A stretch of 63,731 nucleotides of DNA, counting the filler, from Kipferlia bialata (lineage: Eukaryota): NCBI GenBank assembly GCA_003568945.1. It is 7 parts of 6 records of this genome, joined end to end, with 100 filler letters (N's around TTAATTAATTAA, not from the genome) between each part and the next. Parts side by side here need not be neighbours in the genome. Positions count along the whole stretch, not along the records: positions 23,961 to 28,339 come from BDIP01001171.1; 6 more parts are not named here. One strand, written 5' to 3'. This document shows positions 17,207 through 63,731 of this stretch, one piece after another. The position numbers and the translations under genes were made by a program. The number at the start of each line of letters is the position of its first letter. Position 1 is the first letter of the stretch. The notes under the pieces are model-generated. The model made no database searches and had not been told where the DNA came from. It saw only the letters and a list, made by a program, of their open reading frames with translations.

Positions 17207-19764
17207 CTAGTAGAGCACGTCTGGCAGGTTGCTGCTGGACTTGCCGAGACCTATGGGGTCAGTACACACTCATATATATATATATACCATCTATATACCC
17301 CTGTCCACCCACCTGTGTCCTTGACCCGCTGGCTGTAGGTGGATCTCTTCCTAGGAGTCAGAGGGAGAGAGAGAGAGAGAGAGAGAGACATATGGAACAG
17401 AGTATAGCATAACACGACGTGACTACGCATACATCTACACCCCACACCCACCTAGCCTGTGAGGGTGACATGTGTCCGTTGGGAGGAGGCCGGGGCTTCC
17501 TGCCGCTGGGGCTCTCTGCCATCCTAGATGTCCTGAGGTAGGGGCTCTCACTGAACCTACCATCCGGTACAGGGGACATGGGGGGGGCTGGGGGTGAGGC
17601 ACATACTAGGGAGAGCCGAAGATGGATTAGGGAGAGAGGGGGAGAGAGAGCAAGGCACTCTCCAGAATACACAATACCTCCAGTATACACACAGTATCCC
17701 ATGTCCCTACCTCCTGTGACGCTCTCGAGTGGTCTAGGGGGTCCCTTGTGGGAGGGCATGGGCCTTCTGATGTGCTGCTTCCGCCTGGGTGACAGCATCT
17801 CTACCGCATGCACAGCCCTGATGGTAAGGGGGGGGGGGGTATGTATAGGTAAGAATACACCAACACATAGGTATAGTAATGTGTGCACCCCCACCTGACT
17901 CCCTCGAGACTGGCCACGTCCCCAGACACACAGTATGTCAGCACAGACCTGGGGGTGAATGGATAGAAGGGTGGGGGCATGTCCAACAGCAACATAATAG
18001 CCATATCATCCACTCACTCTAGCAGGTGCCCTCTGTCTGTGGCGCTGAGTGTGCTGAGGTCAACGTCCAGACCAGCACTCAGACTGGAGAGCCTGGCCAG
18101 GTGCAATGCAGACAGCCTGGGGTGGGTGTGTATACACTGCATATATACATATATATACTGATACACTATATGGTAACATAGCATCTGGGCAGACAGCCTG
18201 GGGTGGGTGCATGTACACTAGATATATACATATATATACAAATATATACATATATACACTATATGGTGACATGGCATCTGGGCAGACAGCCTGGGGTGAG
18301 TATAGATACACTGTATACATATGTACTACACATATGTAGGATGGATGGGTCAGATGGATGGTAGACAGCCTGGGGTGGGTGGGGATGAGACGGGATATAT
18401 ACACAGCCTATCTATATACTACACCCTACACCCACTATGCATTCACATACATCCACCTGGTGACGTCTGCCTCAGTATCAGTATCATTATCAGTACATAC
18501 TGCATATCATATATATCATACAATGTATACACCCAAACATACACCCACCTCGTCAGGTCATCCCGGGTGCAATCATGGCACCCCCACTGACACTGTATAT
18601 CATATATAGTACCATATGTATATATACACAGATACACACACATATATACCTTGTCAGGTCAGCCTCGGGTGCTATCATGGCACCGGCTGGGGCAGAGGCC
18701 AGAGAGGTCAGGAAGCGGTTGAGGGTCCTGAGGGGTCAGCATCAGTATCTATATATATAAGTATTTATATATTAGTATCTATCTATCTATCTATATCTAT
18801 ATCTATCTATATCTATCTATATCTATCTATATCTATCTATATATATATGGTTGAGGGTCCTGGGGTCAGCATCAATGTGAGGCATGATGCACATATCTAT
18901 GCAAACAGTGTATGCACTAGTATATGACAAGACATGTGTATATACTCATCTATCTATGTTACAGAGTAGTACATGAGTCTACACATCCACCCCACCTGTG
19001 TCTGAATGCATGATGTCCAACCTATCTCACTATATACACACCAATCAATATACACTTATGGATATATCAACTGCATCCACCCCACCTGTGTCTGAATGCC
19101 AGCATGATGCCGCGTCTGCTCTGCCAGGCACGGATGTCCAGGCACAGGAACCTGGGGGTAGGTGGGTGACTAGAATTGATGTATATATACACAACATGTA
19201 CCCCAGCCATCTCACACCCACTGACACCACTGCCCCATTGACAATGGTCTCTCTCTCTCTCTCTCTCTCACCATGTCAACCCACCTAGCGAGTCTCACGG
19301 CCACAGACACCCCTGCCTCCTTGACCCTAGTCCAGCTGTAGTCAGACACCAGCCTCAGGGCAGTGGGTACTGGGTCCTCAAGGCCAAGGCGGCCTGGGGG
19401 TGGGGGGGTGCATGTAAGGGAGGGTGTGATACACACACCAATAACACTTTCTGTCTGCACTATACATCTACAATCCATACCTGCCACCGTCCTAGCCCTG
19501 TTGATGGAGTGGCACATGCTCCAGTTGTCAAGGGCCTGGCGGGACCTGGGGGTGAGGGGTTGTGGATATATGTAGAGACAGAAATAGAGAGATACAGAGA
19601 GGAGCGGGACCTGGGATGAGTATACAGCCGTGTATATTGCATAGAGTACAGGTATGCCTCATGATCCCTGGTCCACCCCCCTCTATATCTATACTGCACT
19701 ACCTCAGCCTCTGGTCCTCCTTCTGCAGTGCCCTCAGGGCCAGTCTCAGCCTGGGGTGGGGTAG

Positions 19765-23960: not shown

Positions 23961-26900
23961 TCCAGGCCAGGGAAGCAGAAGCTCCGGATGGACACTATGC
24001 ACTGCTCGCAAGATGCGTCAATCTCATCTGAGAGAATACCTACTGGTCTTCCAGCAACAGAGACAGTCGTGTACTCTAGGAACTGGCGAGAGGGACGGGA
24101 AGGAATTGCTGGACCAGTGGGAGTCAGCGTGTTCTCCCTTCCACGTGGCCTTCTCTTAAAGAGACGACCAAAGAGAGATGGTAACTGTCCAGGCCTTCTC
24201 TTCAACTTTGGCTCAGGGACAGGCCCTACCCCCTCATATATGTCACTCTCTCTCTCCCTGAGTATGACTCCCTCTCTCAGGCACCGCACTGCAGCAGTGA
24301 CAGAGGCTGTGTGCAAAAGTGTCCAGGGCGGGGTGGCTGAACCCCTAGGGCATGGTAGAGAATCTCGTAGTCTACTGAGGTACAGACTCACACCCGCATT
24401 CCTGCCATCAACCGACATCTCTTGTCCAAGCGGAAGCCTCTCTGCTGCCTCCCTCGCCAGACACACTAGAATAGGCCCTGGGAAGCAATTAGATGAGCCA
24501 CCTGCTATTAGACCATCAATACTGGTTCCTATTATACATATCATATACAATAACCTACCTGGTAAGAGCCCACCATTCCCATAGTGAAGCTTCTGTCCAT
24601 AAGGCTTGGTGGCATAGCCCAATATCAGTCGCAGAGCCTCACTTTCTCTACTCTCTACACTGTCTGTACTCCCCTTGCGTTGAGTTAAGTGGTAAGATAA
24701 AGAACCCTCAAGGTACCCAGAGACTATGCCTTGTATGTGTGTCTCTAGGGTATCCTCCCCCCTGACCATACCCTCCAGTAGTGGGTGCAGGAACCCTGAT
24801 ACCCCACCAGTGAGAGAGAGCACACACTGTCTACCTATCTCTGGGGTGTATGTGTATGGTGACCCCTCCTCCCCCGTCGTGTCTAGCCCTAGGTATCCTG
24901 CCACTAGAGTGTGTGGGTCATATCCAGCAATGTAAGACATCCTGCTAAACCGAGAGAAGACCTGCTCTCCGGTTGGAGCTACTTTCCAACTATCAGTGCT
25001 GTCCATACGCTGAAGACAGTGAGTATATCCACGGGCAAGGTCATAGTCTACGTAGTCAGCAGCTGAGGCTAGGTTGGTGGTACCCGTTACTATGACGTGG
25101 GTGCTATCCCCGCCGAAGTCTCCGATGTGCTGACCACATGGCAAGATGTAGGAGAGGGTAGGATTAGCATCAAGTGCCCATTCCTTATGGTGAGTATAAT
25201 AGTGTAACATGTATATATATATACATGTATATATATTAGTCTCCGATGTGCTGCCCGCACGGCAAGATATACGCCAGTGTCGGATTAGCATCGTGTGCCC
25301 ATTCCTGATTAGTTAAAACATATAAGTGTTCTATAATACATATATTCACTGAGTATGGTAAGACGTAGGAGAGTGTAGGATTAGCACCGGGAGCTATCTC
25401 CTAGTCACTAGGAGACTCCTAGTGTGAGTATATCAAAAGAATGCATGTACATATATCACTAAGATGCATGCGAGAGATGGATTAACACCACTGCTGCGAC
25501 TCAGGGAGTGGCCCTCACTGAAGTACATCACGCAATAAGGGTTTAGTGTGTGAATGTCCGTGAGGATCAATATATCTATAGCTTCTTTACAGTATACAGT
25601 CTAATATACTCTGTTGGCCTCAGCTTGCGTATAGTAAGAACACACACACACCCATATATATATATATACGCCATTGATCTAACATAAGAGTCTCCTCCTT
25701 TATCTCCATATCTCTAAACAAGTTAAGCACCATACCTTACGGTGATTGGGCATCAGCAGACTACCAGTATAATGATTATTGTATATATGTATACATATGT
25801 GCGCGACTGTGTACTTTTGAGTCATTCTCCACCCATATTATGGACAATACCTTACGGTGATTGGGCATCAGCAGACTACCAGCATCCACCAACAGAATAT
25901 ACAGTATATATAGTCACGCTTGAAGCGCTTGATACGCTGCGGTGTATACATGTCACTCATGTAGTATCTTTAGAGTAGATAAACAGTACCTTGCGGTGAT
26001 TGGGCATCAGCAGACTACCAGCATCCACCAACAGAACATACAGTATAGGCAGTCTGGGAGGCTTGGGAACCGCAGTCGGTGCTTGCACACTAGGGTAAGA
26101 CGTACAAAACTGACCAGGCAGAGAGAGAGAGAGTAGCCTACTAGGGTAAGATGTACAAACCAGAGCAATAGATAATACGTCTATACTAAATACAATGTGA
26201 TACATAGCTTTCTGTGTTCACACTTCTTAAAGCTAGGGCTTTAAGATACTTCAAGTAACTAGGTATCATTACCTCCAGCTGTATGATCGCTCGGGTCCCG
26301 AGTAGTTCCTAAAGTACCTGGAAAGTGAGAGAGCTTCAATATATCTAGATACGCGTAGCCTCTGCTGTCTTAGATGATCTAACAGGAGAGCGATTCCTTA
26401 GCCAGAGATACCAAGTAGATATCAAAGCAAAGAGATACATATACATGAGTGTGTACGTACATGTCAACCTCATTGACTAGACCATTGTAGTGTAGTGGCG
26501 TCGGATCTGTCTCCATAGACACTAGAGAAGGTTCAGGCAGCGTGTGCGGAATACCCAAGCGAGTGGCTATCTCGGATACACCATAGAGAAATTGCGAGAT
26601 ACGGTTCTTCTCATCATTATCCAGACCATCACCCACGCTCATTCTAGCGATGCACCACTCTCTGAGAGCCTCATACACTCCACCCCGCACTATGGAGCTG
26701 ACAATGGTGTCTACGTGGTCAGTCCCACTGCAGGAACAGTCTAGGTAGAGAGACACGCCCTTCACAATTGACCCATCAGGGAGAGAGATACCCCCCCTAG
26801 GAAGACGATGGGCTAGCTCCTGTAGCAGTGTCCTCTTCCCATCACTCCTATGGCTCTGCAGAAACCCTCTCTTGTATCTCTCACTGAACTTCATCAGAGC

Positions 26901-27775
26901 AGATAGTCTGGCATCCATGAATAAAGGGTCTAGGAATATGCCTCTAATGACGGGGCACAGGATGCTCTCTCTGGTGAGGGGGACAGCTCTGACGAAGAGA
27001 GAGGCGGAGGGGAGGGGGAGGGAGGGGTGGCACTCGGTGATGTCACTGCTCTGCACCCCTTTTAGAAGGGGTGGGAGGGCACGACACCTGGCTAGGTACT
27101 CAATGTGCCTCTGGTCAAGTTCTGCCTCATAGCTGACCTCTCCCTCCTCTCCCTCTCCCTCTCCCTCTCTCTCTCCCTCTCTCTCCAGGTGTGCATGTAC
27201 CCTTGGTATGCGGCAGGGTTGGGCACTCACTACACCCTCACTGTCCACATATAGTGCCACATAGGTACCCTGTAGGAGATAGAACTCGGCTTGGGCCTCC
27301 AGGGCCTGGTGTTAGAATCAATCAATCAATGTATACATATATATACATATATGAATATATTAGTACCCAGAGATAGAACAGGGCCTGAGAGGGAGCTGGA
27401 ATGAATATACAAGAATACAACTATTACTAATAGTAGAAGAATAGAGAATCGTATGACTCCTGAGGCACATATGAATGAGCCCCCCCCCCCGTGCACTCCG
27501 CGTGGGGGGCCTCTCCGCTTTACTCATGTATCGGGGAGCAGGAATATGTACACATACACATATGTATGTACTTGTATTGCTCCCTCGTGGTGGACCCCCC
27601 CCCACGGTACATCCCTCTCTCTATATATATGCTCGTGATTTATGATGCATGTCACATGCAGCATGTATATGACCTGTACCCCTACCTCGTGGTGTTCCAC
27701 CCCGGGGTATCTCTCTGCTAGACATGTGTCTACAGCTGCTCTGGCTCTCTGCAGGGCATCATCGTCAGTGGGCAT
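23961..27775 (-). CDS. Protein with degenerate P-loop NTPase motifs (possible Crinkler/RHS-type NTPase-nuclease), 5 exons, 3' truncated
   Basis: Exons 27686-27775 (MPTDDDALQRARAAVDTCLAERYPGVEHHE), 26461-27305, 26273-26317, 25990-26089 and 23961-25183 are phase-consistent. They contain Walker A-like GFLQSHRSDGKRTLLQELAHRL and Walker B-like ILYVLLVDAGSL. The frame is open to the contig edge at ...SFCFPGL(D/E). The gene call is strong; the family call is tentative. Confidence 0.72.
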
Positions 27776-28339
27776 GGTATGTAGGGAGACTGATTGTTAG
27801 CGTAGTGATACAAGTGTAGGGCATCGGGAGAGTGCATGCTACCTAGTGTTGGAGCATACCCTTTCCAATAGCATATACATAGACACAATTACATACATAG
27901 TATACTCAACAGCTTCAATGGCTCTATCTAGTGCATCTGGAGAGTGCATTGACTGTGGCAGACTGACTATCAGTACAATACTTGAAGTAATATACTTCAC
28001 TATATGTATATACATACTATATTACTTCAATGTTCAGGGTATCGGGAGAGTGCATACTGGCTCATGTTAGAGGTATAATCAAACCCATCAGAGAACACAG
28101 AACTACTTCAACATTTTCAGGCCATACTTCAATGTGTATACAACACGTGTACAATATATACATACATGCATATACAACCCAACAACGGACCTTTAGTACT
28201 ATACTATGTTCTCGTATACAATATATATTATAGGATAGTATAGCATACTGCATTCAGGTGTATATGGATACTTTGTAAGGACGGGGAGCCGAGAGAGAGA
28301 GGCGGGGGGGGGGGGGGGGGGGGGGGGAAAAGGGCTTTA

Positions 28340-28493: not shown

Positions 28494-31400
28494 ATATGGC
28501 CACTCTCTGTGTCAGGTGGATGGCCACATCCTCCTCTTCGGTGGACTTGGTGGCAGGGGCAGGCTGGGGGACCTGTGGGAGCTGGTGGGGGGACAGACAG
28601 ACACGCCAAGGTATATAGTGTGGTATAGTATAGTATATAGTGTAGTATATAGTGTAGTATATACCTGTGGGAGCTGGTGGGGGGACAGACTGACACACCA
28701 AGGTACATATTATGGATTCTATATTTTTTGTGGAGACACTTAGGTATTATGGTACAGTGTAGTGTATATGGTATAGTGTAACTACATATATGCTGATGCC
28801 CAGGTGGCAGGAGCTGCACCCCCGTGCCCAGCACCCCCTGCCCGTCCATGCCCTGACACCCCTACCCTGCCCCAGGACAGAGCACGTGGCAGTGCACGTC
28901 ACAAAGTGGGTATTCTATGCATTGTTTTCCAAATATGTAGGATTGTGTATGCATTCGTGTTCTATATGTATCTTTAACTCTTCCCTCACCCCCTCAGGCG
29001 TCACTCGATGGTGCTGGTGGGTGGCTCCAGTGGGTCTGGTCCCTTGAACGATGTCTGGGAGTACAACGTGCAGGACAACGAGTGGTACGGCTTGATATAC
29101 TCATACAGCTACCCACTACCCTCTTCCCCTCACCCCCAGGGTACTGCAGCCCAGTGACGTGGCCTCCCCCCAGCCGAGACATGCCTGTGCGTCAGTCTCC
29201 CTCACACAGAGGGGGCTGGTGCTGTTTGGGGGCACGGCCACAGACAGGAGGTGGGTGTGTGTGTGTGTTTTGGGCTATGCGTAACCGCGTGGTATTAGTA
29301 GTAGTTGGTCATTGTTAGTGTATGCCCTCATCCCCAGGTACAATGACCTGTGGCTGTTCATGCTGGCAGACACACCAGAAGGAGAGAGGGAGAGAGCTGC
29401 TGTCCCGACCTCCCCAGAGACTGATGCCCCTGCCGCTGCTGCACCCCCTCAGTACCAGTCAGGGCTGACTAAGCACAGCATTAGCACACCCATGCACATC
29501 TCTAGGGGCAGGGAGAGAGAGAGAGAGAGGGCCATGGCAGAGGCCGCCCAGGAGAGAGAGAGGGAGAGGGAGAGGGAGGCTGCCAGAGAGGCCGAGGCGG
29601 AGGCTGCTAGACAGGCGTCTCCTGCTGTTGAGAGTAGAGTATCTGAGGAAGAGAGTGAGGTGCCTGAGGAGGAGGTTAGTGCTGAGGCCCCAGTGGCTCC
29701 TGAGGTGTCACCGGTGAGAGAGACACCAGCTTCCCCCGTGCTATCCACCTCCCCCTCCCCCTCCCCTGCCGCCTCACCCTGTACTGTTAGTGTGAGTGTG
29801 GGGATGCAGTCACAGAAGACAGGGGGAGAGGGAGAGGGAGAGGGAGAGGGTGTGGAAACAGAGACTGAGACTGAGGCAGAGACCCGCTCCCTGGCCAGCC
29901 TCCCCTCTACCAGCCGCATTGCCCCCCCCTCCCCCTTTGTCCTCTCAGCCTCCACCAGGGAGAGAGAGGCATCCTACGTCACCGTTGACAGTGAGGTATG
30001 GACAGGTGTCCTGGCGAGGCTGGAGGCACTCGAGAACAGGGAGAGGGAGAGAGAGGCTGAGGCTGAGGCAGCCGCAGAGCGTGAGAGGGAGAGAGAGGCC
30101 GAGAGGGAGCGCCAGTACCAGGTGACCGGGTTGAAGTTCGATGAGGTGCACTCCAGAGTGGCTGAGGTGTCAGAGGCACTCATGGCTGCAGAGGGTGCAG
30201 TATCTGCTACAGTGCCCACCCCTGCCCCTGCTGTCTCTGAGGATATGGATAGGGAGCTTGATGCAATCAGGGAGGAGATTGAGACTGTCAAGGGCGACAC
30301 TGCGGCCCTCTCTCTGGTCCTAGGTGGTCTGTCTACCAAGGCTGAGGTGGAGACGGTGAGAGAGGGCATGGAGGGTGTGAGGGAGACCCTCTCCTCTCTG
30401 GAGGAGCGTCAGTCAAACACGGAGGAGAGAGGCACAGAAAGAGATGGTACCATTGCCTCTCTCTCTGATAGGGTGTCTGAGTTGGGTGAGGGTGTTAGTG
30501 TGACCACCATCACTGCTGACAAGGTGGATGCAGTGCAGAGGGAGGTGGACGCCCTCAGCACCAGGGTGAGTGAGGGTATGGAGTCTCTCACTAGGGAGAC
30601 AGAAGGGGTCAAGGATATGGTGGAGACGGTGGAGAGGGAGAGAGAGGCAGAGGCAGAGAGAGACAGTGGTGAGGATGTCAGGGAGGAAGTCTCTGCCCTC
30701 AGTGGAAGGCTGGGCACACTGGCTGCCCTGGCAGCTGGGGTCGTGGAGGAGGTACGGGAGTGCGGTATAGTATCTCTTCCCATCTCTTTCTACCCTACCT
30801 GACTCATCAAGGACTTCTAGTAAGATATATTGTGTATATAGATACCCCTTCTCACCCCCCAGATGGAAGGTGTCAAGGCATCACACCAGCAGCACCTGAC
30901 ATCCAGTGCCGCAGAGGCAGAGGAGGCTAAGGTACGTGCCTGGCATTGTGGAGAGTTACGTTAGAGAGTACCCCACTCTTTCATCATATGTCCTTACCCC
31001 CTAGGAGAGAGAGGATGCCCGTGACCGTGCTGTGGTGACCATCAGCCAGGCCCTTGCCTCTGTCATGCAGGTACCAGTGTCAGTGTCATATATACATATA
31101 TACACATATATACCCATATACACATATATATGACTGATACTGATATACAGGGGAACCAGGCCCAGGATGCCAGGATCACAGAGACACAGCAGGGCATGGA
31201 GGACGCGGTCAAGAAGGTGTGTGGCTGTATGCACTGTACAGTGTCAAATGGTATACCCTCTGACCTGTAGTGTCTCACCCCTCAGATCGATACCCACCTG
31301 GAGGAGATTGCCGGGGAGGGCTCCTTCAGAGACAGGCTACATGCGGTGGTGGTGGATGTGCTGCAGGTATGATGTTCATACCCCCATATCCGTGTCTCCC

Positions 31401-34631: not shown

Positions 34632-34986
34632 GGCACACAATGCGTTGGAGGAGGGGCATGGGGCGGCTAATGTCAGCTGTGTATTTATATATATAGATAG
34701 ATAGAGAGAGATAGAGAGAGAGAGAGGACTGGGCACACAATGCGCTGGAGGAGGGGCATGGGGAGGCTAAGGGTAAGCCGTGTCTAGTGTGGTCTTCATA
34801 CAATGTACTATTCTCATAAGTAATACGTACCTTGCCAAGTGCTGTGCATGCTTCACAATGTCCACCTGACTGTGCACATCACCCAGCATGGTCACACGGC
34901 AGGACTGCTTCCTAGGGTTAGGAAATACGATTATCTGTCAGAGAGAGAGAGAGAGATGGTCACACGGCAGGACTGCTTCCTGGAGT

Positions 34987-38000: not shown

Positions 38001-41000
38001 GCAGATAAGGATGCAGATGCCTTCTGTGACACAGCCCCTGAGGCTACACTAGTCTCCCTAGACCCCTTAGTGTCGTTAGCGCCCTTAGAGGCACGTACAC
38101 TCTTGCTAGCCTTGTCTCTCTTTGGATATAGCATGGATATGAGATCCTCTGCAGCTGGCTTCGGGGTCTTGGGACTAACCACAGGGACATGTATAGGTAC
38201 AGGGACAGGAACAAGTGGAGGTGCGGGTGCTACCGGTGCTAGAGGTGCTGCATCCGCCTTAACAGTCTCCCTCTCAGCAACCACTGGCACTGACTCTACA
38301 TTCTCCTTAGCAGGTGTGGTAGTGGTAGTGGCGGCAATTACTGTCTCCGCCTCCACAGCCACTCTCTCTCCCTCATGCTTCTCTTCTGCCCTCGGTACAC
38401 TGGCAGGTCTCTGACCCACCGGTACCATAGCAATATCCCCTTCTGCCCTTGGCTCCTCGCGAACAGGAGTCTCCCCCACCCTCTTCAGCTCATCCATCAT
38501 CCTGCCCATCCTCTCATGCCTCCTGTGCCGTGGAGAGAGAGACATCTCAGGGGACACGCACACATCGTCTGTCGCACTTCCTACACTGCCAACATCCACT
38601 TCCCCCCTCTCTCTCTCCTTGGGGGGAGGTATCTCTCTCTCCCTCCCTGCCTCTAGGTGACCCTCTCTGGGTGGCATGGACACGTCCCTCTCCACTACTA
38701 CTCTTTCTGGACTAGGACCCCTGCGAGTCATCTCAGTATCTCCATCCTCCTTCTCTCTCTCCATACCCCTTCCCACGGGGCTCTCTCTGGGTTGGCGGGA
38801 TTCAGGGGATCTCTCCCTCTCTCCCTCTCTCTCCCTCTCTCTTGGCACGGGTTCCAAATGTCCCTCCCGTCCCTCTCTCTCTCTTCTCTCCGGCTCCCCA
38901 CCCTCAACGACCCTCTCTCCCTCCCTATACCTCTCCCTTTCAGCAGGATACCCAGGACTCACTCGACGGGGACTAGGAGAGTGTGGTCTCTCTCTACCTC
39001 TCTCCCTCTCATCTCTGTACTCGGGTGAGTACCGGGGAACCCTCTCTCTCTCCCTGTCTCTCTCTGGAGAGAGACCCCTACTAGGGGAACGAGGGGCATA
39101 CACAACCTCCGTCTCTCTCCTAGGCGAGTACGACGGCTCTCTCGGTCTCTCTCCCCTTGGGGAGTAGGGCCTCTCTCTCTCCCTATCAGTATTGGATGCA
39201 GTGGTGTAGACAGGAGAGTACTCTCTCTCTCTCTCCCGTGCATACTCTGTCCTTGGTCCCTCCGGGGAGTATCTAGGGGGCTGGTAGTCATACTCTCTAT
39301 CCCTCCCCACCTCTCTCTCTCGTGGGTATGCATACTCAGGTGTCAGAGGACCTCTCTCTACAGCTGGCTGCACCTTCGCAGGCTCAATCTCCCTCACAGT
39401 CTCCTTCCACCTAGTATCAGTATATATATATATATATATATAGTATTACACTGATAGATATATAGTACATATACCAGTACCTCGTGCCCCCAGGACTGGT
39501 CGTGTACACGTCGTAGTATACATACTCATATGCAATCTCTCTCTCAGGACTAACTGGATACACGGGCATATCTCTCCGCCTATCCCCGGCGTTAGGGAGC
39601 AGCCTCTCTCTCGATCTAGACATAGACCTAGGTCTGCTGCGAGAGAGAGAGGGAGAGAGGGACGGTCTATCTGGATCTGGACAGGGAGTGGCAGAGGCAG
39701 AGGGTTCTCTCTCTCTGCATCTGTCCTCATATGCATGCCGCCTTCTCCTCTCTGCCTCTCTCAGTCTGTCTAGCACCACCTCTCTCTCAAGCTCAGCCTT
39801 CTCAGCCGCTATTACCTGGTGATAACATAGATGGTAATGGTACATGTGTGTACATCCAAACAAGTGTGTCAAGTGATAGTACTGTATCCAGGAACAATAA
39901 TACTCAAAACTACACATATGCAACACACGTCTATACCTGCAACTCGAATGCGTCTCTGTCTATGGGGGGCAGGGGAAGGTTGACATAAGGATAGTATGGA
40001 TATACTATACTACTCATTAACATATATACTATCTATATGCTATACCTGTAGCTCCAGGGCGTCTCTGTCTATGGGCGGTAGGGGCAGGACAAGGTCATCG
40101 ATGGGTCTGGAGGGTAAGAGGAAGATGTATGTATATATATATATACATATATATACTGCTAATACTAACGCCTGAGTGATCAGAGTATTGTAGTGTCTCT
40201 AATAACACTCACCCAAATACTATACATATAGGTACACATACCTGCCCTGACACTCCAGCTCCTTCCCAGTGTCGGGCCTCTTCTCTGGAAAGGTGCTCTC
40301 GGGGTTCATGAGCTCCTTGTCATATACCTGGTATCAATATAGTAACTATTATACCTTAATAACAGACTAATATAATAATAAGAGTAGCAACAGACAAGAG
40401 TGAATGAGCTCCTTGTCGTACACCTGTGATAAGCATATCAATAACAAGAGATAACATACAGTACATATACTATCCTATCTACAAGTCCCTATACCTGGGC
40501 CTCTTCTCCCCTTGCCGCCACCCGCCTGTCAATGTTTCTGTTCAGTACATATACATAAATAGAGTGTCCATACACATATAGTATATACACTCTATACCTG
40601 GGCCTCCTCCCCCCTTGCGGCCACCCTCCTGTCTATGTTACTGATCAGTGACGCAACTGAGGGCACGGGGTGGTGGGTCACATTGCGCATGTCATCCCTA
40701 TTGTGAATAATCGCATGACAATTCTCCATATATATAGGCAGAAATCAATGATGATAGTCGCCTAGTCCAATTACTTAAATGGTGCAACACCGCGTAGAAC
40801 ATTACAATCGTGTAGAGTGTTACCTGTCGAAATGGGGTGGACTTGGGCTGAAGAGGACGTTGGAGTCGTCAGAGTCTATCTGGGGTCAGCATAGCCCATT
40901 ACACTAGGCTAACATCGATTGAGAAACCACCGCACAAATACACCTGAGCAATACCTCTCCATCATTGACCACGGATGTAGAGTGAAGTAGTACAACTACA

Positions 41001-43935
41001 ATAACATATATACCTGTGGAGTAGGGGCTCTCTCTGTCTTCTTGTCCACTGCCCCCAGCCACGGATGTGGGTCTGTGAGTCTGGGCAGGGGATTGCACCC
41101 TGCCTCCACCCTGACAGGGAAGGAGGAGAGCATACGGGTGAAGACATTGGTCTAGGGTTAGATATATATGAATATATATATATATAGAGAGAGAGAGAGA
41201 GCACCCTGACAGGGAAGGAGGAGAGCGGGTAAAGACATTGGTCTAGGGTTAGTACATATTGCCATCCAACTCACAAAATCCAGTAACCGTCTCTGAATGA
41301 AAATATGTACTCGTCAATAGTGTAACTAGTGGGAGTGGGGGCGAAACCCTCTCGCACTCCCCATATATATATACCTACTCCTCATCCCTTGCAAACTCCA
41401 GCAGCATCTCCTCTGGTAAAACATATGTATTCATATACCGTGTATATATGTATAAACAAATATACAAAAATATATATTAATACAAATGTACATACATTAT
41501 ATATATGTGTGTATATACACTATACCTTCTCCTCATCCCGTGCAAACTCTAGCAGCATCTCCTCTGGAAAGGCCAGGGCCTGGGCACGAGTGATACTCAG
41601 AGAGTTGCTAAGGGGTTAGATGTATGCTTGTCACATACTGTACAATTGTCACAGTTGTCAAAATTATACCTTAGAATTGTCTGGATGAACACGTTTAGGA
41701 ACGTCAGGTCCAGGTCAGGTGTCGATATGTGGGGGAAGAGGCCCTTTTGGAACACCTAGGGGTGAGAATAAGGGTATTCACAAGACATGATGGATAATCA
41801 ATTAATATTGAGAGAGCAAAGGAAGGAAGGCTAAGGTGTGAGAATAGGGAGCGAAAGGGTAAAGTAGTGGTGTTTACAAAGGCGAATGAGAGTCAACTTT
41901 CAACATATACACTACATAGGTATAGTACACTATGCAGTACATATACATACAGGCAGGAAGGGTGTCAGTACATTTACACTATATGTATACATAAATATAT
42001 ACTGTATACACTATATTATATATATACTTCTATATTACACCAGTACCTGCATGATGGGCAGCAGTGACCCAAGTACAGCCAGGAAGGGTGTGAGTACACT
42101 GGCAGGGAGGACGCCATCCTCTGTGCCTAAGAATGAGAATAGGGGTGTAGAGGGGAGAGAACGAGACAGAGAGAGAGAGAGCAATATGCTTACCTCCATT
42201 CTCGCATAGGGTTAGCACTGCTGATAGGAGAGATGCCGTCCAACATGGCATGCCTAGGACCTTGTTGGTCAAGACCCTGAAATAAGGGTCTAGATAGGGT
42301 CAAAAATGGATGTAAGAGACTGAGAGAGTCCATTATATTCACCGGTTGCAATTAAGGGTGTGGTGGCCAGCTCTAGCTATTATTTGGTTTAGGGGTTGGT
42401 ATCGCAATAGACAGAAATCATCAGAGAGTAGCAATGTCTACACTCACCATCTGTACTTGAGTGTCAGTGATGCAAACTGGCTGTAGTCCTCTTACTTGAG
42501 ATATAACCTATATATATATACACACACATATATAGATAGATATATACATCATCCTACATATATCCACTGATATATGGATGGGTACGTACCATCTATACTT
42601 GAGTGTGAGCGATGCAAACTGGCTGTAGTCCTCGATGGATGGGTGGAACAGAAGGTCTCTGTTCAGCTGCTGACGCACAGGGGCAGGGACAGTCTGATGT
42701 TAATAATTGAATATATATATATATATACGTATACTCCTATGTAAATATACATGAATACATAGGAAGGTCTCTGCTATCGAGCTGCTGACGCAGAGGGGCA
42801 TAGTCTGATATTAGAGGATGAATACACTATATTCATGAATACAACACAGTATGTAAACTATAGAGTAAGGTCTCCACTATCAAGCTGCTGACGGACAGGG
42901 ACAGGGACACTCTAAGGTTAATGATATGTCGGATGAATATATATGTATATATGTATATATATTATAATATTATATGTATATATCGAGTAAGGTCTCTATC
43001 CAGCTGCTGACGCACAGTCTGGACTTAGACAGCAACGAACATATATTGTGTGTAGCTTATACATGTATATATACTCCGTACGTTGACTAGGTGTCTAGTC
43101 TGGCACAGTCACAGGATATACTATGTATAGAGTGTACAGATACTATATAGAGTATGAAAATATATACATATATATATATACATATGTCCACTGCAATAAT
43201 ACACTCAAGACCATACCTCCACCAGGTGTCTGATGCCCATTCTGGCACAATCACTAACTAATACTTGTATATACTAATCTATAATACATAATACTTCAAG
43301 ATCTTGTATATATACTCCATACCTCCACCAGGTGCCTGATGCCCATTCTGGCAGAATCATATACTAAAAACATGTATATATTAATCTATAATATATACTA
43401 CTTCAAGATCTTGTAAATATATATACTTATTATATATACTAATTTTATATACTCCATACCTCCACCAGGTGCCTGATGCCCATTCTGGAACATGACAGTG
43501 TGGGCTGGGGTGTCAGAATACAAATATCAAATATATCCACAGGAGTATTCGGATTGATCGAGTAATGAACCATCTTCTTGGACTAAAGGACTCTTTTGTG
43601 TGTGTGTTCGTATAAATGTGTATACATATACACATAGGGGTATATATATATACCTGGTAAGGAGTGATGTCAATCTTCTCCGTCTCACTCTTTCTATGAT
43701 TCAAACCCTATATACGTATGTGTAATGTAGGGAAATAGATATTTACATTCATACCTGGTATGGAGTGATATAAATATGAATGTGCATATGAGCATATGTA
43801 ATAGTATACTTGTCTATGATTATCAGTACGTATATATATGTACCTGATATGGAGTGATGTCAATCTTCTCCGTCCCACTCTTCTTGGCGTCATTGTCAGA
43901 CTCGACATCGGGCATGCCATCCTGAAATAAGGGTC

Positions 43936-43979
<44 letters not shown>

Positions 43980-44088
43980 TTGTCAGACTCGACATCGGGC
44001 ATGCCATCCTAAAATGAGGGTGTAGAGAGAGAGAGAGAGAGAGATGCTTATCATACAATCAGGCATGCCATCCTGCAGTAAGGGTCTA

Positions 44089-44139
<51 letters not shown>

Positions 44140-44181
44140 GTTTAACATACAATCAGGCATGCCATCCTGAAATATGGGTGC

Positions 44182-44225
<44 letters not shown>

Positions 44226-45852
44226 TTATCATACAATCAGGCATGCCATCCTGAAATAAGGGTCTAGAGAGAGAGGGGGGGGGGGGGATACTTGACACAT
44301 GGACTCACAATAGGAAATAGATACACAAGTACCGAATGAATACAACAATATAATAGTACGTCAATAATATATATCCTACCTCCTCCTCGTCGTCTGGCTA
44401 CACAAAGAAGTCGGAGGACATATACTAAAGTATATATGAGGATAACACGAATATACTAATGTCAATCAATACACATAATAGAATATATCTATCCTACCTC
44501 CTCCTCGTCGTCTGGCACCACAAAGAAGTCGGAGGACAGAAAGTGCATGGAGAGCCTGGCATTAGTAATCAGTATACAAAGTATATACTATAAGTAGTAA
44601 AGTAATATACAATTGAGCCAACAATTGGTACCCGACTTCAGTATGGCCAGTGCTACCATATATATATATATATACATATATATACGGTATTTATCTCCTA
44701 CACATATCTATATCTACCAATACAAATATCTATATATATACCCCACCTGAGTATGGCCAGTGCCACTATGGGTGCCGCTACCCTCGCATGTATATACTCT
44801 CTCCCAATAATTATGTTTATTATTACAGCATGTATATGTATATTCAATACTATACCTGAGTATGGCCAGTGCCACTATGGGCGCTACTTCTACAATATGT
44901 ACACACACTCTCTCTATATATGAATACTATTACATACTATTGTATACATACACATATATATACCTGAGTATGGCCAGTGCCACTATGGGTGCCGCTGCCA
45001 CAGGCTCAGACTGCACCAGGTACAGGTAGTTGACCTCTATAGTGAGAGAGAGATGATGTGTTATGAATGTATTCATAAACGTAAGAGTATGTGTACTAGT
45101 ATCAAGCTATACTATGCGGACAGAACTCTACAGAACTACACAAAGAGTTACTATAACATCTTTCTACACTCCCATTTTTATACATCTATAAGAACACAAA
45201 CGTATACGTACCTGGTGCATATGCTATTCATATATACTCACATACCACTTGCATAATACATGTAACTAGTATATATATGAATAGTACCTGGAGCTCCTGC
45301 CAGACTGACACAGAACTCAGGGGCCACAGTCTGTGGGGTGAGAGACATATGTCAGAGTATGAATATATATATACTATGATATAATACATACTAGAACAAA
45401 AGATGTGTATTATGAATAAGAACAGAACTCAGGGGCCACAGTCTGTGGGGAGTATACACACTCACATGCAGGTACTGTATTGATACCAGTCACATACAAT
45501 AATGTATCCAATGGACATATAAATCAATGTAAAGTATTGATAGAAAAATACTCACCTGCTTGTACTGTATGGATGTCAGTACTCCATGGGTCTTCCCTGG
45601 CCATCTCCTGATGTAAGGGTGAAGAGAGAGAATTAGGGTCTTGGCAGAGAGAGAGAGAGGGACATAGTGTCCTTGCAATAACACACCTTAGCATTAAAGG
45701 GAGTAGGCTCCTCTCGCATGCCCCACTGGACTCTGGGTCATACTACTCTCTCTCTCTCCCAGTATAGACATATGTATACACATATGTATATATATACCTC
45801 AGCATCAGGGGTAGTAGGCTCCTCTCACATGCCCCACTGGAGTCTGGATCTG
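34632..45852 (-). CDS. Very large multi-exon (>25) hypothetical protein: hydrophobic/helical N-terminal part, RE/RS/YSP-rich and Pro/Thr/Val-rich middle, globular-looking C-terminal part; both ends truncated
   Basis: Phase-consistent path from DPDSSGACERSLLPLMLR (45798-45852) through TVPAPVRQQLNRDLLFHPSIEDYSQFASLTLKYRW and VFQKGLFPHISTPDLDLTFLNVFIQTIL. It continues through exon 39481-39815 and the large exon ~37050-39410 (798-aa ORF), then ECRAWVYVVNDQVMLSGHSLAEGSAVSIRIDGDEVPYLALLG and onward. No family recognised. Confidence 0.8.
35699..35774. other. Internal scaffold gap (76 N, no stop cassette)
   Basis: A plain N run inside an intron, between a true exon start (35657) and a copy of the same exon start (~35780-35821). 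Confidence 0.9.
43654..44262 (-). repeat. Exon 43844-43921 flanked by four extra acceptor/exon-start copies and two extra exon-end/donor copies
   Basis: AG|GATGGCATGCC acceptors at plus-strand ~43922 (true), 44009, 44073, 44167 and 44251, separated by (GA)n tracts. Donor copies ATCACTCCWTAYCAG|GT at ~43775 and ~43654. Confidence 0.93.
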
Positions 45853-46529: not shown

Positions 46530-46548
46530 TAGTGACCCTCACCTCCAG

Positions 46549-49500
46549 GAGGTGGTAGCCCAGTCACCCCTGTGAGGGATATATACATATATCTGTATCT
46601 ATACTCATAATGCCACTAACCACCAGGCGTACCAGCAATAGTCACCCCGGTCAATGAGAGAGACATCCAGACTGACTCTGGTGTTGACTGGGTGCCTGAC
46701 CCCAGGGAGAGCACCCTGGTGCAGCGCACCCCTCCCAACTCTGGGGTATGTCAAGTCTGTTACTATATGTGAATGCTACTATCATTCATACTATATGTAT
46801 ATACACTATACCTATACATGCGTGTCATGAGCACCTCAGTACACCACACACCCAATTTTGGGGTACTTTTGTAACGTCATATTGCTATAAGTGTATACTG
46901 CTGGTACATAGACCCTCTGTATACACATGATCGTCCTTGATTGAGATACCCAGGACATACGTATACACCTAGCTATATATATATACACAGCAATGTATCT
47001 TCCTGCTAACTGGCAGACCCAAAAGCTCATCAAGAAGTACGAGACTGATCGTGTTCACGGGGAGACCCGTATCCCACTCCCTACCTCCATCGCACCCAAC
47101 AGAGACCGCATGGAGGGATCATTTGCGGTATGTCATATATAGTGTACACTATTGTATACATACTATACGATATGTTGACAGTAGTGATGAAGGGGACTGG
47201 CAGTGAGAGGGTCTCTTCCCTCCTAGTACACTATCGACAACGTATACCAACTATCTGCAGCCTCTCTCTCTCCAGCCAATTGTCGACAGTCACCTGGTTT
47301 TTACTTGATTGTGTCTTGCACTAGAGATTGTTGGGTATACGACGATAGTATAAGAGTATATCACTGTCTCCTCCCGATTGCCGACACCCAGCATCGATAT
47401 AGTATATCAAGAGTATACAGTGTATGTACATAACCGGTATTCATGACTGACAACTAGAGTGCCGTTGCAGTACACCAAGTTGCATTGTATATATGTGTGT
47501 CTTTGGTATATAATATTAATGTATACCTCACTGACACCCAGCGTGTAGCACCAGTGCCAGGCAGTTCTGTGTACGGGAACATCTACACCCCAGCAGGTAC
47601 TTCTTCTCTCTCTCTCCATATGCCCCCTACACTGATGCTGTCTTGGTATACTGCATTGACATTGACTATTAATTCACTCCTTCATACACGATGTACCCAT
47701 ACATACACACATGTAAACTATATATGGTGTGGGTAAGTACATCTGATACATGTATATATATCTATTTCAAGTAGCGGTTACGTACTCAACTCTCACTAAC
47801 TGCGCCAGCCACGCTCATCATACTCCCTATATACCGTAGTACATATGTCTATGTGTGTGCATACCTGACCCCAGCTATGATCAGGAGGACCAGGCTCGGG
47901 TCTTGCTTCAGGGCACAGATGGAGGACAGAGGTGCGGCTCGGTCTCTCTCACTACCGTATACACTATTAGTACAGTGTTATACAATGGTGCGTCTATCTA
48001 TCTCTCTATCTGTAACGACAAGACTGTGGGTACAATGGTGGTATGTGGTTGTGTCTGCTGCCATTGGTGTGTACTGGCATATGCAGTGTATGTCTTCGAA
48101 TAATACTGAGTATGTTGTTCTTTCTCTTTCTTGGATGCTCTCAGTCTCTCTCTCTCTCTTAGCGTATGAGCATATATATATATGCTATTACTGTGTACAC
48201 ATGTCTCCCCTCACTATCAGACGATGAGGGTGCATGGACCCTCCAGTTCAATATGAAGTCTATATAGTCTCTATATATAGTCTATATATACACATAAATG
48301 TAAACGGCATCTCACAACCAGACATTGAGGTTGCTGAGGGTGCAGGGTCCCTACACGACTTCGGCGCTGACTACCCCGGTGTGGATGATGATACAGAGGC
48401 TGAGGTATGTGTTGTATATGAGGTTAGAGTGAATGTATAGTAGACATTGTATACTTATGGAGTGACGTATGCCACAGAGGTGTGTATATACATACAGACA
48501 GGATGAGGATATTATGTATATATACACAGGAGGTATCTACCCCTTTGTGGTACTCAGGTATATACATGTATTCCTGCCCTACATTGCAGGATATAGTATA
48601 TGATGTTGTACCCGATGTTGTCTGACCGCAGTGGCACCGAGGGATATATATGTTTATATATATTATACATTCATAGGACATGATATAGGCTGACCCCAGT
48701 TTAACCTCCCTGACAGAGAGGACAGGGACAGTGAGGGGGACATTGAGGGGGAGAGAGAGGGGGAGAGTGACAGTGGCAGCTCTGACTTCGACTCTGATCA
48801 GGTATTGTATACACTCCTGCACAGTGTATATATACTATATGAACATATACGATGGGGACTATGATCAGCTGTACAACTCTGCTTGGTATATGTATGGTAA
48901 TGTATGTATGTGTGGGTGCTACAGTTGATGTACATGAGTCCTCCGGTAGTGGCGGTCTAGCACACTGTACTGACTCGACACATGCATACTACTCCTCATA
49001 TACACCATGTGCTCAATGACTACTATATGTGTCACCTCACTGTACCCAACGCCTGACATATGGCTACACAGCATATATCTCGTCAGGCTCTCTTTACACC
49101 CTTTACTCACCATCAAGACAAGACTGTAGTGGGGGATATATGCGTCCCATATCGTTCTATGTAAATATCTGGTGGCACTTCTGACTCCCAGGAGAAGACT
49201 ATGGTGGTTGAGGACACCGAGACTGTGATAGAGGTAGAGGAGGGAGAGAGGGCCACTGTGGTGGAGGCTGAGGTGCCAGACGACATTGTCATTGTGTCAG
49301 GGCACCACACACACCACACCAACCACACCCACCAGACTGGTGTCTCTGTGGAGGACAGTGAGGCTGAGAAGGAGGAGGGCGTTGGTGTCGATGGGGATGT
49401 GGTGTATAGTGAGGACGACTCTGAGACTGAGGAGGAGTCTGAGGCTGACACTGTGGGCCAGACAGAGGTATGTACATGTCATGTGTAGTGTGTTGCATGA

Positions 49501-62188: not shown

Positions 62189-63510
62189 GTACACACACAC
62201 ACATATATATATACATATATATACCTAGCGACAGCTCCAGTGACCGTGTGTGCAGCGTGATGCTCTGCTTGACCCACCCACTCATCTGGGCCACCCTGCC
62301 CTGCACGTCCTGGGAGGGTTAGGGGTATATACAGTATATATATACGTATTACACACATACACACATATACATACCCTGTGCAGCCTGTGCACACTCTCGA
62401 CATCTGGCTCGCCAGGGTCTCTGGTGGTATCGGTGTACCTGGGGGTCAAGAGGAGTCAAGGAGGCTCACCAACCACACAGAATGAGAGGTATAGTCAATA
62501 TACACAGAGATTGCCACATATACATACCGTCTCTTCTTCTCCTCCAGCTGGTGCAGCTGCTATATACATACACATATACATCACTATGTAAGTACACTCA
62601 TATAATAAGCTGTCATCATACAGTGTCTTCTTCTCCAGCTGGTGGAGCTACCAAACAATAAAACTGTATACTCACATCACATTCTCCTCACTAAAAATTA
62701 TATTACACTATATAGCCTCTGCGTACCGTCTCTTCTTCTCCTCCAGCTGGTGGAGCTATATATATATAATCATACATATATATCCTATTCATTATATCTC
62801 TCTATGTATATACACTATGTATAGCCTCTACGTACCGTCTCTTCTTCTCCTCCAGCTGGTGCAGCTGCTCGTCTAGCTTCTTGGTCCTGGGGTGGGTAAA
62901 GGGGTCTATCCATACAACTAGTATATACTAGTATATCTGCAGCATACATGTATACCCGTGCATACCAGCTTCGTGGTCCTGGGGTGAGGGGAGGGGTCAA
63001 TGTACACTACACATATGCCCTATCATTACACCAATACGTCAGTCCAGAGCCTATCCGCAGAATATACACAACAACATACCTCCTCTCATAGCTCTGTGCC
63101 CTTATGTCAATCTCACTCTCCAGCTCCACTATGCGCCTCTTGGCGTCCTTGATGCCTGGAGGGTTAGATATAATCTATAATCGATATTTATCAAGTGTGA
63201 GTAAATAGATATCAGAGAGATACATTCCTGACAGACTAAATATATGGTCAGAGGGATATATATATATATTGAATAGGTGTCTCTTGGCGTCCTTCAGTCT
63301 TTAGTATTACAACACTCGGGAGAGAGAGACAGCTATTGATGTCATACATGCACTTATACCTATCTCCAGCTGGTTGCACTTTGTCTATATAGACATCCAA
63401 ATATATACACATATATACATATATGTGTACTACTATACCTATCTCCAGCTGGTTGCACTTTGTCTGCATCTCTGCAAAGGTGGTGGGCTCAGACCCATAG
63501 GAGGGGATGA
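58976..63510 (-). CDS. Coiled-coil protein, 15 exons seen, 5' end beyond the window
   Basis: Phase-consistent path: TKCNQLEIGIKDAKRRIVELESEIDIRAQSYERRTKKLDEQLHQLEEKKRR...YQTIVKESDWLRTEVQRLTELNTSLAQQEH...IIKVVNECLASIKEDM...KVAERLMHEEHLFSMLSDVLK...FRGDEE, with TGA at 58976-58978. Confidence 0.82.
60077..60578 (-). repeat. Exon ~60249-60317 flanked by three extra acceptor/exon-start copies and two extra exon-end/donor copies
   Basis: Plus-strand CCCTCTTCTCAG / CTCAGTGGCAACCTGGGGG copies at ~60393, 60480 and 60561. TACCTCCAGGTCT copies at ~60076 and 60167. Confidence 0.88.
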
Positions 63511-63517
63511 CTGGGGG

Positions 63518-63559
<42 letters not shown>

Positions 63560-63689
63560 GGTGGTGGAATCAGACCAATATATTGGAGTGCCTGGGGTGT
63601 AAGAGAGTGAAGGAACGGTAAACTCAGTAAGAAGAATATTGTGACAGAGTGAAAGGGGGAGAGACTGAATGGTGTGTGTGAGAGAGAGA

Positions 63690-63731
<42 letters not shown>

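Follow-up and report, generated by a model that had tools for sequence, protein, structure and literature searches.

Why should an intron hold copies of the exon ends beside it, altered in their nucleotides while conserving the protein? The question is raised by a gene of Kipferlia bialata (assembly GCA_003568945.1, record BDIP01001171.1), one intron of which contains two copies of the start of the downstream exon and two of the end of the upstream exon. We analysed it within a window of 63,731 nt, the whole stretch of DNA studied, to which alone all counts below refer and which was read as eight stretches parted by N runs; six N runs carry a TTAATTAATTAA linker. The features of the locus are the following, P0001 being the K. 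bialata protein KIPB_010390 and X2 a putative RNA run:

23961..27775, minus strand: host gene, possibly a divergent P-loop ATPase-like gene, running off the contig
27775-27686, 27305-26461, 26317-26273, 26089-25990, 25183-24559 and 24501-23961, minus strand: predicted six-exon chain of the host gene, open in phase
25990..26089, minus strand: upstream exon, ending in ...LMPNHRK, with donor GTACTG
25184..25989, minus strand: predicted 806-nt intron containing all four copies
25118..25183, minus strand: T, the 22 codons with which the working exon (25183-24559) opens, in a phase-consistent chain and colinear with P0001
25184..25238, minus strand: 55-nt TA-rich filler that begins with TAA, has no GT at its start and ends in T's acceptor ACTCACCATAAG
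25239..25304, minus strand: E, exon-start copy with 11 nt differences, giving 7 silent and 2 replaced codons
25305..25355, minus strand: 51-nt filler ending in E's acceptor ACTAATCAG
25356..25400, minus strand: F, 15-codon copy reading EIAPGANPTLSYVLP, with a TGACTAG acceptor at 25401-25407
25851..25908, minus strand: donor-side copy, the first of two, repeating 58 nt from the end of the upstream exon with 2 differences and its own GT
25736..25770, minus strand: donor-side copy, the second of two, repeating 35 nt from the end of the upstream exon with 2 differences and its own GT
25514..25556, strand unassigned: likely dispersed-repeat fragment within the focal intron (depth ~10,000 at 25554, loose ends)
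25190..26034, plus strand: opposite-strand GT-AG intron, found spliced in one X2 contig

The minus-strand host gene is evidently real, because its six exons form a chain that stays open and in phase, and because, of the 40 listed variants (of 104) that distinguish a second DNA copy, 27 fall at third positions of the gene; its second exon may contain one further intron, which is spliced out in the paralog model. This second copy (depth 477) is present in DNA run X1 together with the window sequence (depth 461), and, among the 40 of 104 variants listed, all 12 replacements that lie in coding sequence common to both match P0001, the one protein retrieved with exon 24704-25183 as query (82% identity) and probably a paralog or a very diverged allele. 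Pfam gave nothing at cut-off for the window exons, P0001 or P0002 (KIPB_000945), a distant K. bialata family member of the host gene, so the "NTPase-like" label of the first-pass annotation is a lead only. What speaks for it is that P0002 contains the words NGKTT and LVDE, which we take to be Walker A- and B-like (DGKRT and LVDA in the window gene), and that Atlas features place P0002 at 0.96 with ATPase_2 clusters (TM 0.42-0.56; P0001, TM at most 0.47); a P-loop ATPase resembling ATPase_2 (PF01637) is thus a lead for the identity of the gene. An Rfam search of 23961-28339, the repeat fragment at 25514-25556 included, returned 0 matches, and a 14-mer look-up found no second copy of that fragment in the window.

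The splice from 25990 to 25183 is predicted from the phase-consistent chain and the colinear paralog model; sense splicing is inferred here, since the sole splice joint in run X2, 25190-26034, lies on the plus strand. X2 was taken as RNA by guess and has a depth of 3-6, so that absent cover over the copies carries no weight: its contigs are missing over 25259-25966, where the run is shallow and antisense-looking, and no sense splice from 25990 to 25183 was seen in it. One X2 contig covers 25118..25183, that is T, without mismatch (0 other letters, depth 3.3, probably antisense). The plus-strand joint is likely that of an antisense transcript, because no long ORF crosses it on the plus strand, because X2 contigs retain the 57-nt intron 24502-24558, which is absent from the paralog model, and because they read 37 nt beyond the acceptor at 26089. 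A gene on the plus strand, an idea prompted by this joint, was rejected, as every frame of the joined plus strand contains stops, 27 of the 40 listed variants fit minus-frame third positions and the 12 replacements agree with P0001. Read on the other strand, the sense branch word ACTCAC becomes the donor GTGAGT, and CTCACCCCCAG, a word common among sense acceptors, yields a strong donor context; sense branch sites can therefore double as antisense donors. The antisense joint happens to preserve the minus-strand frame. In this one case the antisense splice took the outer acceptor and bypassed the one at 25895; the two agree throughout their last 29 nt.

On the minus strand E translates as EWAHDANPTLAYILPCGQHIGD and T as EWALDANPTLSYILPCGQHIGD. 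Their 11 nt differences are spread over 9 codons, 9 of the 11 lie in third positions, and the two replacements are L4H and S11A. E carries its own acceptor and is followed by TAA and then TA-rich filler, and the first-pass description of its sequence is confirmed; the third, more diverged copy that it reported is also present, although its start had been placed one base off. In local alignment E scores 44 and F 26, where 1000 intron shuffles peaked at 15. The silent share of the E-T differences is 0.82, where a neutral copy beside a constrained exon would be expected to give 0.36 (p=0.003). When E is compared with both T and F, its private changes number 5 silent and 1 replacing, and those of T are 2 silent; at codons 8, 10, 11, 12 and 15 F equals T and E alone deviates. 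A neutral E would not gather 5 silent changes in 6, which indicates that the E line evolved as coding DNA apart from that of T. A linear cis history from F to E to T fits poorly, because T would have to revert the changes found in E only. Residues P4 and G5 are present in F and in the paralog and are the older state, which F has retained, and at W2, D5, I20 and D22 E agrees with T against the paralog. T, E and F are thus three distinct versions. The silent differences between E and T (9 of ~15 sites) cluster in codons 8-17, and their silent divergence exceeds the rough 0.2 found between the gene and its paralog (39/356 nt; 18/118 aa).

An assembly artefact, in which alleles or paralogs were stitched together in tandem, is hardly credible as the origin of this stack. 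The assembly is fragmented and the sample does contain a diverged second copy; against this, a 784-nt read-derived X1 DNA contig (24760-25543), at full single-copy depth (461), crosses T, E and F with 0 other letters and 0 gaps, which argues that the stack is no mis-join, and the stack holds three versions, none of them equal to the second copy. X1 may be the source data of the assembly itself; the contig is nevertheless read-derived. An exact match to another locus together with mis-joining, which the first-pass annotation had set against its own reading, was not found in the data examined.

The same annotation, which committed itself to no mechanism, had raised a paralog as a possible source. 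Equal depth (477 vs 461), gene models that end at the same residue and the alignment of the first 74 nt of the focal intron make exchange with KIPB_010390 plausible, and F has P4 and G5 in common with it. The paralog, however, reads ERAPGANQVLSSILPCGQHLGR at the exon start and differs from E at 9 of 22 residues and from F at 5 of 15 (F vs T, 4 of 15), where T differs from E at only 2 of 22 and from the paralog at 8 of 22. Because E matches T at 20 of 22 residues and the paralog at 13, KIPB_010390, the one close paralog found, is not the donor of E; copies occur, moreover, in genes for which no paralog at all was found. Copying of E and F from this extant paralog is therefore very improbable. 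The second DNA copy has only 154 letters between 25115 and 25916, and its alignment breaks off no more than a few bases from the first donor-side copy; at this place the paralog probably has an intron of ~160 nt, free of the T-E-F stack. The paralog model is colinear across the focal junction, where the paralog DNA also has extra letters. The window gene and KIPB_010390 end at the same residue, both at contig ends, which suggests identical downstream sequence, as in an allele pair or after recent conversion.

To place the focal copies in a wider frame we surveyed the whole window. A repeat scan gave 117 local hits, from which 56 families and 76 pairs were set by hand, with frames from our own gene finder, which is blind to mismatches; 69 pairs in 54 families with at least 12 aligned nt were scored, and 7 shorter pairs (2 whole families) were dropped. 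Copy F was excluded from the window-wide count and included in the analysis of private changes. Among the 54 nearest copies, 57 of 281 four-fold sites differ against 41 of 1026 zero-fold sites, a ratio of 5.1 (bootstrap 3.1-8.2), which three phases corrected after a chain check left unchanged. That the silent bias extends beyond one locus, as had been proposed, is borne out by the 53 other families, whose ratio is 4.6 (2.9-7.9) without the focal pair; in 36 phase-checked families it is 5.0 (2.6-10.1), and 4.3 (2.2-9.4) without the focal pair. Silent and replaced codons, counted like the private changes, unit measures, flanks and drift on the earlier phases, number 66 and 44 in frame, and 12/102 and 13/100 in the shifted frames, where the signal is lost. 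E (67 nt) is indeed the longest of the nearest copies; it is the most diverged by count (11), whereas per site it is exceeded by the copies at 63510 (10/33), 45556 (6/25) and 35238 (7/35). Another strongly silent-biased copy, at 45686-45850 on the minus strand, has 8 differences in 53 nt and 1 of 17 residues replaced.

The units have a median period of 100 nt (10-90%: 80-141), a median copy length of 29 nt (range 14-67) and a median filler of 75 nt (minimum 44). Over their first 13 nt the intron flanks mismatch at 40% for acceptors (61% random) and 52% for donors (66% random); the flanks of copy pairs are closer than random over 4-25 nt, yet much diverged, as for homologous introns. Over 40 nt, 12 of 54 fillers exceed the null 95th percentile, and the matches of the 54 fillers to the window are simple repeats or belong to the local stack, with no common element among them. 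A five-copy acceptor stack at 43890-44290 (minus strand) has (CT)n fillers that can still be aligned. In a 15-exon gene at 58483-63731, the chain that uses outer sites only is open in 15 of 15 exons, and 13 scored plus two unscored exon ends, about half of the gene's exon ends, have copies. The repeat scan detected no exon-end copies in the intron-rich genes of 46530-58382; this region includes, at 50588-55999 (plus strand), one or more very long exons with internal coding repeats spaced 67-107 codons and longer, which by composition would be coiled-coil-like. An ab initio gene finder calls such copies as false exons.

Candidates left unscored lie at 433, 18557, 26089, 27817, 28571, 34634, 41948, 62521-62829 and 62875. 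At 27817-28072, three related 21-37-nt stretches, echo-like and non-coding, stand upstream of the predicted start codon with spacings of 112 and 218 nt. A 28-nt stretch at 34634-34770 (minus strand, at a contig end) is duplicated with both AG and GT and is possibly a whole mini-exon copy. The copy at 28571-28709 is donor-side and belongs to 28494-30751 (plus strand), where exons with repeated "LFGG" words, presumably kelch-like, are followed by a long low-complexity exon.

In the simplest account of such units, a plain tandem duplication would have arisen in cis, after which its inner copy decayed neutrally and fast slippage wiped out the similarity between the fillers. The head-to-tail arrangement, the related intron flanks and the identical exon parts in 16 of 54 pairs are in its favour. 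Where the exon is fully constrained, however, a neutral copy next to it would give a four-fold to zero-fold ratio of at most 2, a value at or below which 0 of 5000 bootstrap replicates fell, and about 25% of copy-private changes should be silent. In 13 multi-copy families we observed 21 silent and 20 replacing copy-private changes (21/41; p=3e-4 against 0.25), a conservative count in that majority polarisation mislabels the ancestral states of F; changes private to the working exon were 6 silent and 1 replacing. On these private changes, both copies evidently evolved as coding sequence before they were joined, and plain duplication in cis is highly improbable. AT drift was rejected as the cause of the silent bias, third positions showing no strong skew (S>W 36, W>S 28).

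Could the copies be under selection now, through unusual splicing into mRNA or as templates from which the exon end is repaired locally? GT or AG is retained in 66 of 69 copies, in many of which the consensus is stronger than at the outer site, and the silent bias continues in the farther copies (pN/pS 0.26), as such use would predict. Against it, E has an acceptor only, ends in TAA without GT and has no in-register GT-AG pairing with T. Of 53 unit periods, 17 are divisible by 3, where chance gives 17.7, and 4 of the 54 nearest copies contain in-frame stops, so the copies are no in-frame extensions; the ORF is kept in 9 of 53. The X2 contig over T, probably antisense and at low depth as noted, likewise shows no other letters. 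We therefore regard present use as improbable; most likely the copies are relics that now serve no function. A long shot too is the variant in which Kipferlia would keep exchanging exon and intron ends between highly diverged homologues, with the displaced ends conserving the protein because they are still in use, as repair templates or by an unknown splice route, as a genome-wide back-up layer.

We propose instead, with somewhat better than even confidence, that joins of diverged alleles or homologues, offset by ~100 nt, duplicated the splice junction, the outer copy being the one that works and the inner a frozen former exon end. A break would occur near an exon end; one end would then be extended across the splice junction by copying ~80-140 nt from a diverged homologue, or offset breaks in the homologues would be joined directly, the first route amounting to aborted synthesis-dependent repair with alternative end joining. 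End joining would yield the old exon end, ~45-120 nt of the homologue's intron end and the new exon end, in that order. An event would survive only if it duplicated one splice site together with sufficient intron (at least ~44 nt), because the spliceosome would use the outer site, probably by exon definition; the inner copy would decay neutrally, and repeated events would build stacks such as T-E-F. A reduced spliceosome, with 87 of 174 proteins, has been described (PMC6679479). Metamonads are described in PMC8516963 as devoid of canonical NHEJ, Ku and DNA-PK, and Fornicata as having lost Rad51A and possessing two Dmc1, and interhomolog end joining and aborted gap repair at meiotic breaks are described from the mouse germ line (bioRxiv 2020.06.23.168138). 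Several points speak against it: the model of offset joins needs a silent divergence between homologues near 0.2; between E and T that divergence is patchy and higher than between gene and paralog; no more than 12 of 54 fillers stand out from random pairs; and stacks show no clear order by age, the nearest copy being the closer in 8 and the farther in 5 of 13, which is not significant. An unsequenced or lost paralog as source, which is possible, would fall under the same reading. Searches for a donor allele or homologue matching a copy together with its filler found none, nor did a homolog search among proteins of 88-280 aa; for 38192-38701, in a gene rich in copies, a second haplotype was sought among proteins of 299-2000 aa with 0 of 4972 candidates, a weak result in that the region's own model is likewise unlisted.

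Almost as good a fit is offered by tandem duplication on the same chromatid, after which gene conversion would have written the sequence of diverged alleles over the working end and its flank, the inner copy being left frozen. Such overwriting would produce the same silent bias and the same copy-private silent changes; the units at 19750, 43921 and 59102 are near-complete tandem repeats, filler included, as it would predict, and divergence is overdispersed, with no third-position difference in 23 of 54 pairs where 12 are expected. The same overdispersion (chi2 94 on 53 df) ruled out a single hybridisation event with one level of divergence. Duplication with conversion would, however, require two events per site at up to ~half of a gene's exon ends, the filler would have to be replaced too, without an aligned anchor on its far side, and diverged alleles would still be needed. 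We consider it rather unlikely, though a serious contender, and continue with offset joins as the preferred reading.

How do these copies compare with known systems? In a potato RdRp gene an intron was reportedly gained by tandem duplication. Tandem genomic duplication as a route of intron gain, intron transfer between paralogs and intron gain at double-strand break repair are set out in PMC3443670. Like the duplication-born introns described there, the Kipferlia units are short head-to-tail intragenic duplications spliced out of the protein; the former, however, duplicate an exonic AGGT and make a new intron, whereas the latter start from a pre-existing splice junction and an old intron grows, each unit consisting of one pre-existing splice site plus intron. 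Unlike the products of duplication in cis, the copies also carry a signature of coding selection. Intron transfer and gain at breaks (PMC3443670) move intron DNA as proposed here, but as single intron gains. Tandem or mutually exclusive exons, as described in PMC9013439, similarly place protein-conserving copies in the flanking intron; those exons are whole, have both splice sites and can be expressed, whereas Kipferlia copies have one splice site, stop part-way and in some cases contain stop codons, and E has no acceptor and donor in register. Interhomolog repair in the mouse (bioRxiv 2020.06.23.168138) joins two homologues through offset breaks or aborted synthesis, with tandem duplications possible, as we propose; the mouse events are rare and occur at hotspots (~2e-5 per haploid genome, Atm-null), whereas in Kipferlia 64 kb contain dozens of junctions with fixed 100-nt units. 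Introners and mobile introns resemble the present case in that many introns of one protist are shaped by one repeated process, but the fillers here have no common element in the window and what is duplicated is an exon piece of 14-67 nt. In a search of literature outside subscription journals we found no report, for this or another protist, of one-sided exon-end copies with a silent bias, and in the main text of the K. bialata genome paper (PMC5874029) the strings "duplicat" and "heterozyg" are absent. The feature thus appears to work like a repair-born tandem duplication, to differ from mutually exclusive exons, duplication-born introns and introners, and to be undescribed.

If the reading of offset joins is true, one genome would archive dated former alleles at many splice junctions, and the allele diversity and sex or parasex of fornicates would be legible from a single assembly. 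Introns would grow and swap ends without intron gain, erasing intron homology, and such swapping would bear on the age, old or new, of the 124,912 introns given for K. bialata in PMC5874029. The numerous natural pairs of competing, nearly identical splice sites, ~100 nt apart, would also offer a direct test of how a reduced spliceosome chooses its splice sites.
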